A stretch of DNA of 63,384 bases, filler included, from Rhabdomonas costata (GCA_019059605.1; 23 parts of 23 records of this genome joined end to end with filler, not necessarily neighbours in it); one strand, 5' to 3'; positions 55,357 through 57,282 are shown, counted from the whole stretch's first letter. Notes: generated by a model from the sequence alone, not told the origin. Made by a program: numbers and translations.

Positions 55357-57282
55357 GTGTTTTGCCTGAACCTATCTGCCCCGTTCATTGTGCAATTCTT
55401 TGGCGGGCAGTTGGACGAAGTGATGCCGTACGTGGACATTCTGTTCTGTATGCACGTGCCTGTGCGTGCACCTCTCCCCTCCACTGCAAGTTGAAGCTTA
55501 GAACTTGTGATTTATTGCAAGAGGTCTTTCCGAACTTATCCACCCATACTATGGCGCATACTGCTCAAGCTACACACCCCTCATCTTACCCACTTCCTTC
55601 TCCTTGAATACCTGTTTGATATCACTGTGCCTTGCTTGCTTCACATCGTTGGGTTTCGCTGCGCCCGTTGAGTGGTGAATTGCTTCGGATTGTCTCGAGT
55701 GTCTGGAGTTGGCTTCTCGTCACACTGCGTTTTCAGCCAATGACGATGAAGCTCGAGAATACGGCAAGAGCAAAAATCTCCCTGTATGCTTTTCCTCCTT
55801 TCCTACTCACAAATAACAACTGACTTCCCGAAACGCAAAGTGACTTCCGATCATATGTTGCCGTGTAAACGTCATTTTTGCTGAATGGTTTCTGTGGTTT
55901 TCTTTGACCAAGAGCCGCCAGATGGGTACCGGCCTGAGGGTGCAAAGACCGACCTACGAAGCGTTTTGGGAGGCCCACGGTACATTCAGAAGACCCCGGG
56001 CCTGCTGCGCCCATATGTCCTGTTTTGGTTGACCAAGTAAAGATATTATCCTTGGATATGGAGATTCCCTGTTTTCTTAATATTTTTCAGAGCTTTTGAG
56101 AACATCATTTTGTATTTCCACTGTTTGTTGTGTGTTGTTTGGGTGGTGCAGGGGACCGACATCCCATCCATTGGAAAGTACATCGTTGGCCTTCCCAAAG
56201 TGAACTCCAAGCGCGGCCGCACTGCTGTGATCACTCAAGGGTGCAACCCTGCAGGAATGCACACACCCACGCAACGTTCACAAGGCAAACACACACACAC
56301 ACAGACAGATAGACGCAAATACACATCAGCTGTTTGTTTTTGCCTGCAAGCGGGGTTTGGTGTGCCGAAAAGGCTGAAAAGCGTCCAGGTTCATGGGTTT
56401 GTTTGCGTTTGCGAATGCAAAGCTTAGCGAGCCAATGCGAGCTGAAGCATCCCAGCCCACTCCGATCTTCTGCCCTGAAATATGCAGACCTGCCAGTGCC
56501 AATGAAGGGTAACCGGAAATCGCCAGTTGGGTCCTTCAGAAGTCACCTAGGGAATGAGGCAAAGGTATTAATTACCCTTGGATCAATTCCGAATATTTCG
56601 TAAAGATTGTTGGCTCATCAAAATATGGAACAAGGTATGAAACAAAATAATCCCCCTTTCTTAGAATTGGGAAACATGATTGTCAAATAATGGATAATAA
56701 CGCTGCTCCTTGAATCATCATTTGACTTAACCATCGTCAACACTTTTACTTCATTCCTTTTTTTTTGGGGAAAACTTTTGCTGTTGTTTGTGCTGGTTCC
56801 TTTTTGCCATCGTTTCAGTCATCGTTACGGCGGAAGGTGTGAAGGAGTACGCCGCACACACTATTCCGAAGGATAAGATTGTCGACACCAACGGCGCCGG
56901 GGACGCTTTTGTTGGAGGTCTTTTCCCTTGCAACACTGGGCTCCGCGTCAGGAGATTTTGGTTTTCGTCTGCAGCGTTGCAACTTTTTATGATTCTTTGC
57001 ATTTGCGGTTGGTGTGGATGCATTGGTATCAGGTTGGAGGTGATTGGTGTGGAGTTGGCGCTCTCTTGAATATTTGCGAAGTGCTGTGGCGTCGCAAGAG
57101 CATGTTCAAAATAAGCATCAGCCCTTCCGTGTGCTGTGGTGTGCCATGAAAAAGGGTTTCTGAGCCAGCTGGCCACGGGGCAAGACATCGCTCGGTGTGT
57201 CAGCGCGGGGCACTACGCGGCGGGGGTGGTGATCCAGCACTCGGGCTGCACCTTCCCCGCGCGGCCGGACTTCCGGCCGTGA
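55357..57282 (+). CDS. ADK: Adenosine kinase, 3' half
   Basis: Exons 55357-55447, 55737-55783, 56152-56254, 56819-56917 and 57155-57282. [63 protein letters not shown]. Confidence 0.95.

Follow-up and report, generated by a model that had tools for sequence, protein, structure and literature searches.

A probable GA-AG spliceosomal intron in an adenosine kinase gene of Rhabdomonas costata

The third intron of an adenosine kinase (ADK) gene of the euglenid Rhabdomonas costata runs from GA to AG (positions 56255 to 56818, plus strand; 564 nt, phase 1, 44% G+C, with a CA-rich stretch near its 5' end), and is probably a genuine U2-type spliceosomal intron that compensating signals make usable. 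An earlier note on this DNA had proposed a GA-AG intron at this place, and its core interpretation remains the best model. To judge by the features of the sequence and by a junction that homology defines, the A at position 56256 appears to be the real base and the junction 56254/56819 (a slash marks splice junctions throughout) would be the one used in RNA. Of the 19 introns modelled, this is the only one with a GA donor, and as the assembly is a draft made up of short contigs, one erroneous base would suffice to produce the entire observation.

The window, which is the whole stretch of 63,384 nucleotides that was analysed (from assembly GCA_019059605.1), consists of 23 unrelated contigs of 2,653-2,663 bases each, arranged in descending order of length and separated by N44-TTAATTAATTAA-N44 linkers; a site said to lie "elsewhere in the window" thus belongs to the same assembly, with neither a chromosomal neighbourhood nor synteny implied. 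The ADK contig (55216-57872; 2,657 bases), flanked by linkers at 55116-55215 and 57873-57972, carries the 3' half of the gene and four introns. Alignment by tblastn of six euglenid-like ADKs places five intact exons in order on the plus strand. The aligned part of exon 1 (55354-55447) ends with TTC T, in phase 1, and the likely first base of this exon is 55334, which follows gggtgCAG; intron 1 (55448-55736, 289 nt) reads TCT/GTATGC...TTTTCAG/CC. Exon 2 (55737-55783), supported by tblastn and by its translation, is followed by intron 2 (55784-56151, 368 nt; CCT/GTATGC...GGTGCAG/GG), and exon 3 (56152-56254), supported in the same two ways, ends with the first base of a Val codon. Beyond the GA-AG intron, exon 4 (56819-56917) encodes the DTNGAGD motif, intron 4 (56918-57154, 237 nt) reads GAG/GTCTTT...GAAAAAG/GG, and the last exon (57155-57282) includes the TGA stop codon.

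The identity of the gene, given as adenosine kinase from the outset, is borne out by several searches. Exons 4 and 5 match the Pfam PfkB family PF00294 (33.6 bits over profile positions 234-265 and 27.7 bits over 264-298, respectively), and the product, with its PfkB domain and DTNGAGD motif, is colinear with known ADKs (235.2 bits against an HMM of 18 of them). A search with the last exon (57154-57279) as query returned 35 candidates, 32 of them PfkB-family proteins, and the top matches, EG_transcript_18833 among them, are transcripts of euglenid adenosine kinases, with 75-78% identity; this is the best identity for ADK, and no transcript of the same gene was found in the protein searches. 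A highly conserved Rpt3 exon on the contig adjoining the ADK contig has a best match that is 96% identical, with EG_transcript_13604 at 94%. These protein similarities mark the host as a euglenid, and no transcript identical to its own sequences was among the matches. A scan of metagenomes for ADK with the pattern IVDTNGAG matched 594 stretches, of which 407 were confirmed; the best among the 80 kept are 47-74% identical over about 23-40 residues, and neither a close relative nor an orthologous genomic locus was found in this alignment scan. A supplement table for a heterotrophic euglenid (PMC8219788) has no entry named "adenosine kinase".

The boundaries of intron 3 are as first described: the upstream exon, ...ATC ACT CAA GGG TGC AAC CCT GCA G, ends at 56254; the intron begins with GAATGC at 56255 and ends with ...CGTTTCAG at 56818; and the downstream exon begins with TC ATC GTT ACG at 56819, in phase 1. 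In the tblastn alignments, residues 263-266 of P0005 correspond to CNPA and V267 to G/TC, with no indel. Candidate junctions were scored with an HMM built from 18 full-length ADKs, the set comprising 62 in-frame, stop-free GT-AG, GC-AG or GA-AG models and one nonconventional model. The 56254/56819 junction, which had been proposed on the strength of colinearity, is the best-fitting of these 63 models, at 235.2 bits against 225.4 or less for every other (the next being 225.4, 225.2 and 222.8), a ranking subject to the caveat that homology scoring always favours a gap-free model. Both a T[QC]G motif (TQG or TCG) and DTNGAGD are present in 27 of the 32 ADK matches. They are 26 residues apart in 21 of these proteins, 27 apart in two, 28 in two, 30 in one and 31 in one, and in 16 of the 27 a Pro occupies the third position beyond the first motif. 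The GA-AG model keeps this Pro and has the modal spacing of 26, whereas the alternatives give 22, 30, 33, 36 or 61. The CAG that precedes both junctions of intron 3 permits four registers that yield an identical mRNA, and only the GA...AG register ends the intron with AG.

Comparison with other introns of the assembly shows how unusual the donor is at one position, and how ordinary at the rest. Eighteen other introns supported by homology (six in a dynein heavy chain gene, one in MTHFR, three in Rpt3, three in ADK and five in BBS9, on contigs 1, 3, 20, 21 and 22) are all GT-AG; no GC-AG donor was found among the 19 modelled introns, and no nonconventional intron among the 18. Of the 593 ORFs, stop to stop, that reach 60 aa, 570 were scanned with Pfam (of the remaining 23, all on the ADK contig, three were scanned in addition, together with one 55-aa ORF), and the domains found were dynein, kelch, MTHFR, Mak10, WS/DGAT, response regulator, laminin-G, Rpt3 and BBS9. 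The intron set leaves out kelch, Mak10, WS/DGAT, response regulator and laminin-G, as well as a second MTHFR donor (GGG/GTGCTC) for which an acceptor was not found. The majority bases of the GT donors (C in 7, A in 11 and G in 14 at the end of the exon; A in 8, T in 10, G in 7 and C in 9 after the GT) give CAG/GTATGC, a consensus built on 18 donors only, of which the six in dynein were placed by eye, with Pfam profile coordinates as the guide.

In place of the GT or GC with which U2-type introns begin, intron 3 has GA (56255-56256). Its donor site, CAG/GAATGC (56252-56260, plus strand), agrees with the local consensus at eight of nine positions, the sole mismatch being the A at +2 (56256). All seven flanking positions fit, in keeping with the spliceosomal context that had been claimed for the site; the 18 GT donors match at two to five of the seven, and the product of the consensus frequencies for a full flank match is 0.009. 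The hexamer GAATGC is not rare, with 40 copies on the two strands of the window against a mean of 29.9 per hexamer (GTATGC has 21); CAG/G.ATGC has eight fixed bases, so its chance at a given site is about 4^-8, and it sits exactly at the junction that homology demands. Such a match argues for a splice donor at this place, whatever the true base at +2 may be. The earlier note had likened the site to GTATGC and GCATGC donors in use elsewhere, which is overstated: GTATGC is the donor in only four of the 18 GT introns, and the 10 GCATGC sites include none that is tied to a gene model.

The distribution of strong and weak donor positions among these introns is the usual pattern of compensation, in that the four GTATGC donors follow exon ends other than AG (GAC, TCT, CCT and GCT), and the GT donors with weak intron parts mostly come after an exon-end AG. 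Intron 3 would illustrate such donor-site compensation, the sole GA donor being also the sole donor with the consensus base at every other position. GC-AG introns are U2-type introns in which a base other than T at +2 is offset by strong consensus at the other donor positions; intron 3 differs from them in having A, not C, at +2. The 5' site of U12-type introns has the consensus RTATCCTT, and the 5' end of intron 3, GAATGCAC (56255-56262), does not fit it. Separately, the donor of the first dynein intron, CCG/GTATCCTT (2557-2564, minus strand), agrees exactly with the 5' splice-site string of U12-type introns; near the 3' end of that intron no clear branch motif of the U12 kind was seen, and the donor may simply be a near-consensus one of the GTATGC type. 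An Rfam search of the whole window gave no matches, and hence no U1 or U6 snRNA, and PMC10679874 contains no information on U1.

The 3' end of intron 3 has the features of a U2-type acceptor. TTTCAG (56813-56818) closes a tract in which 14 of 17 bases are pyrimidines (82%; 56799-56815), the joint highest proportion among the 19 introns (0.82 over 17 nt). The interval without AG before the acceptor, described at first as about 55 nt, proves to be longer, extending over 152 nt (56665-56816, plus strand; the nearest upstream AG is at 56663), against 19-66 nt in the other introns. Inside it lies a candidate branch site, CTTAAC (56726-56731, plus strand), with its A at 56730, 88 nt before the intron's 3' end. 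TTAAC at -88 and TTGAC at -93 are both present in intron 3; the YTRAY motif is weak in this organism, being found within 160 nt of the acceptor in nine of 19 introns. Fifteen of the 19 acceptors are CAG, three are AAG (Rpt3 intron 2, ADK intron 4 and BBS9 intron 2) and one is TAG (BBS9 intron 3), these four sites lying at 54695-54696, 57153-57154 (ADK intron 4) and, on the minus strand, 59229-59230 and 59598-59599.

These features suggest a way in which the intron might be spliced. CAG/GAAUGC is predicted to pair with U1, and later with U5 and U6, at every position of the local consensus CAG/GUAUGC but +2, and the extra complementarity of the flanks would offset this one mismatch. A distal branch site, for which CUUAAC 88 nt upstream is the candidate, would be followed by the pyrimidine-rich, AG-free 152 nt, so that the first AG (56817-56818) would be taken as the acceptor. 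Splicing would then join the G at 56254 to the UC at 56819-56820, forming a Val codon and a product colinear with other adenosine kinases.

Of the competing explanations, the one that survives best, though it is unlikely, is that the A at 56256 is not a functional base, being either an error of sequencing, assembly or amplification or a real T-to-A change in a dead allele or copy, in which case the working gene would have a perfect CAG/GTATGC donor. The assembly is a draft with contigs of about 2.66 kb, one base change is enough to make the anomaly, a single modelled intron of 19 is affected, and the protein searches, as mentioned, yielded no transcript of the gene. This explanation, however, makes the undamaged donor a match at all seven flanking positions, which is expected in about 0.9% of cases, and none of the 18 GT donors exceeds five. 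Nothing would steer an error or a random mutation towards the single best donor of the set, whereas a functional GA donor should need such flanks; the argument amounts to a likelihood ratio of roughly 20- to 50-fold. Moreover, the quality of the bases is not visibly poor: the coding sequence modelled for dynein, Rpt3, MTHFR, ADK and BBS9, about 2.9 kb in all, contains no frameshift and no stop, the joined dynein heavy chain exons reading through 366 aa without one, and none of the five ADK exons on the contig is damaged.

It is improbable that the mRNA is made instead through a canonical donor, with an indel relative to the homologues, or through a GC or GT donor combined with a hidden micro-exon. 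Two nearby dinucleotides, a GT in phase 2 at 56241 and a GC in phase 0 at 56251, would shift the frame when joined to the phase-1 acceptor, as the earlier note had it; that note missed four donors that are in frame with the same acceptor, namely GC 56243 (phase 1), which would remove four residues, and GT 56276, GC 56285 and GTGTGC 56360, which would add 7, 10 and 35, respectively. All of these models are in frame and free of stops, the frame of exon 3 being open for 170 nt into the intron (56255-56424) and reaching the in-frame GTGTGC after 105 nt; GTGTG is reported as the conventional donor consensus of E. gracilis (PMC11170887); and the junction appears to fall in a turn that links two strands, a place that could accommodate an insertion. 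Nevertheless, these models score 219-225 bits against 235.2 (GTGTGC 56360 has 219.2), the spacings of 22, 33, 36 and 61 residues from TQG to DTN that they entail are found in none of the 27 homologues, and in each of them the conserved Pro or else the IVT strand is missing. The best of 135 micro-exon models, with GC 56251 and a 4-nt exon, reaches 234.4 bits, within 1 bit of the GA-AG model; the best such models need both an exon of 4 nt and the poor donor CCT/GCAGGA, and they were set aside on grounds of parsimony. The full donor consensus at 56252-56260 is left unexplained by either kind of model. As an observation in its own right, GTGTGC 56360 (phase 1) and the CA- and ACAGA-rich stretch at about 56263-56310 would together make a ready cryptic donor, the use of which would add 35 residues.

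A nonconventional, spliceosome-independent intron of the euglenid kind, either in a slid register of the same junction or at 56249-56800 with CAG at +4 to +6 and CTG 5 nt before the 3' end, is very improbable, and was rejected because both the pairing of the intron ends and the sequence signature are missing. The host's proteins are euglenid-like by similarity, and such introns make up 57% of those identified in E. gracilis (16,151 of 28,337; PMC11170887) and 71.8% of those identified in E. agilis (PMC12501133); in addition, the CAG direct repeat lets the junction slide over four registers, and the 56249-56800 model is in frame, adding four residues, at 225.4 bits. The reported marks of nonconventional introns in Euglena are terminal pairing, CCAGG at +3 to +7 and CCTG at -9 to -6 (PMC11170887, PMC12501133), and the signature 5'-N3-CDG...CH'G-N5-6/R(exon) (PMC12501133). 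This signature appears in none of the four registers at the homology-supported junction, where positions +4 to +6 read TGC, ATG, AAT and GAA and no CHG is present 5-6 nt before the 3' end. When the terminal 10 nt of each end are joined through U7, the fold of the GA register has 0.0 kcal/mol, and those of the remaining registers have -1.8 to -3.2; a duplex of the 30-nt ends has -8.2 kcal/mol, weaker than the mean of shuffled sequences (-11.65, sd 3.15), so that the pairing is not beyond chance. The 56249-56800 variant has only three paired bases, a downstream exon that starts with T rather than a purine, and a four-residue insertion. Finally, none of the 18 other modelled introns is nonconventional, and a donor that fits the spliceosomal consensus at eight of nine positions speaks against this reading.

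The GA-AG reading of intron 3 has parallels in other eukaryotes. It had been held that GA donors are very rare outside dinoflagellates, which is too strong a statement: GA-AG introns outnumber GC-AG introns as annotated in a copepod, Eurytemora affinis, and in a tunicate, Oikopleura dioica (Frey and Pucker 2020, PMC7072748), GA-AG is reported at 3.2% of supported sites for one of the two species, and a variant U1 has been proposed (PMC7072748). Those sites, which are read as spliceosomal, resemble intron 3 in the GA donor, the AG acceptor and the AG/GAA flanks (PMC7072748); unlike them, the present case is one intron of 19, in another supergroup, and known from genomic sequence. Introns of the dinoflagellate Symbiodinium are described as GA-AG(G), the final G being the first base of the downstream exon (PMC5818653). 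They share with intron 3 the substitution of GA for GT in a nuclear gene of a protist; here, however, the host is a euglenid, all other modelled donors are GT, and the exon after intron 3 begins with TC, so that the intron does not fit the dinoflagellate type. A GA 5' splice site in human FGFR genes is likewise used efficiently by the major spliceosome, reportedly in dependence on a canonical GT site 6 nt upstream (cited in PMC7072748); in the ADK gene, by contrast, CT occupies the corresponding place (56249-56250), and the GT closest to the junction, at 56241, lies 14 nt upstream. The nonconventional and "intermediate" introns of euglenids (PMC11170887, PMC12501133, PMC4770533) resemble intron 3 in having a euglenid host, a border other than GT and a short repeat along which the junction can slide, and differ from it in that intron 3 shows neither the end pairing nor the CAG/CTG signature and has instead a spliceosomal donor context, a pyrimidine tract and a CAG acceptor.

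If intron 3 is real, a euglenid would have a spliceosomal intron of the GA-AG class, a term used by none of the euglenid intron papers among the matches listed in the literature search. Introns in euglenids that do not begin with GT are usually filed wholesale as nonconventional; a genuine GA-AG intron would mean that at least some euglenid introns without GT or GC are ordinary spliceosomal introns rescued by compensating signals, and this would affect the tally of each of the two kinds in the genomes of euglenids. The case consists of one intron in one gene, identified on a sequence basis, and GA-AG introns are already known elsewhere. In the supplement table for a heterotrophic euglenid (PMC8219788), intron boundary codes include GAAG 90 and CTTC 95, beside GTAG 4549 and CTAC 4912, and GCAG 308 and CTGC 326; other odd classes are GGAG and CTCC together 91, ATAC and GTAT together 91, and CTAG 76 (PMC8219788). 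These counts are unverified exonerate calls, made per transcript and probably listed twice, and the GAAG and CTTC counts, at only about twice those of the other odd classes, are no more than a lead.

The wider claim, that T, C or A at +2 is acceptable to this spliceosome, is not established, as it rests on one GA case and on no GC donor among 19 introns. A more specific proposal, which is tentative, is that GA forms a regular third donor class of the major spliceosome of this euglenid, accounting for something on the order of 1% of introns and permitted only where positions -3 to -1 and +3 to +6 are fully consensus. GA donors of such a class would extend to Euglenozoa the tolerance seen in dinoflagellates, the copepod and the tunicate, and a variant U1 might serve them.

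Several smaller observations concern the ends of the ADK contig and the intron set as a whole. The start of the contig (55216-55333) resembles an acceptor in two places: at 55240-55256, where GCAG comes after a T-run, and at 55326-55333, which reads gggtgCAG. An additional upstream exon encoding ASFFFAVTP (55238-55264), weakly similar to the ADK motif FFLTVSP, was judged a poly-T artefact: it needs a gap of about 47 nt that is not GT-AG and is without structure (z 0.25), and gains only 10.6 bits over 423 models. Homopolymers occur near the other end, with CCCCCGGGGGGGAG after the ADK stop codon (57297-57308) and a run of 10 G opening the next contig (57973-57982), and may mark sequence of lower quality. 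The proportion of nonconventional introns, 0 of 19 modelled, stands against 57-72% in E. gracilis and E. agilis (PMC11170887, PMC12501133). The donor consensus here, GTATG, differs from the GTGTG of E. gracilis (PMC11170887) and resembles the (G)/GTATG of some diplonemids (PMC12621601).
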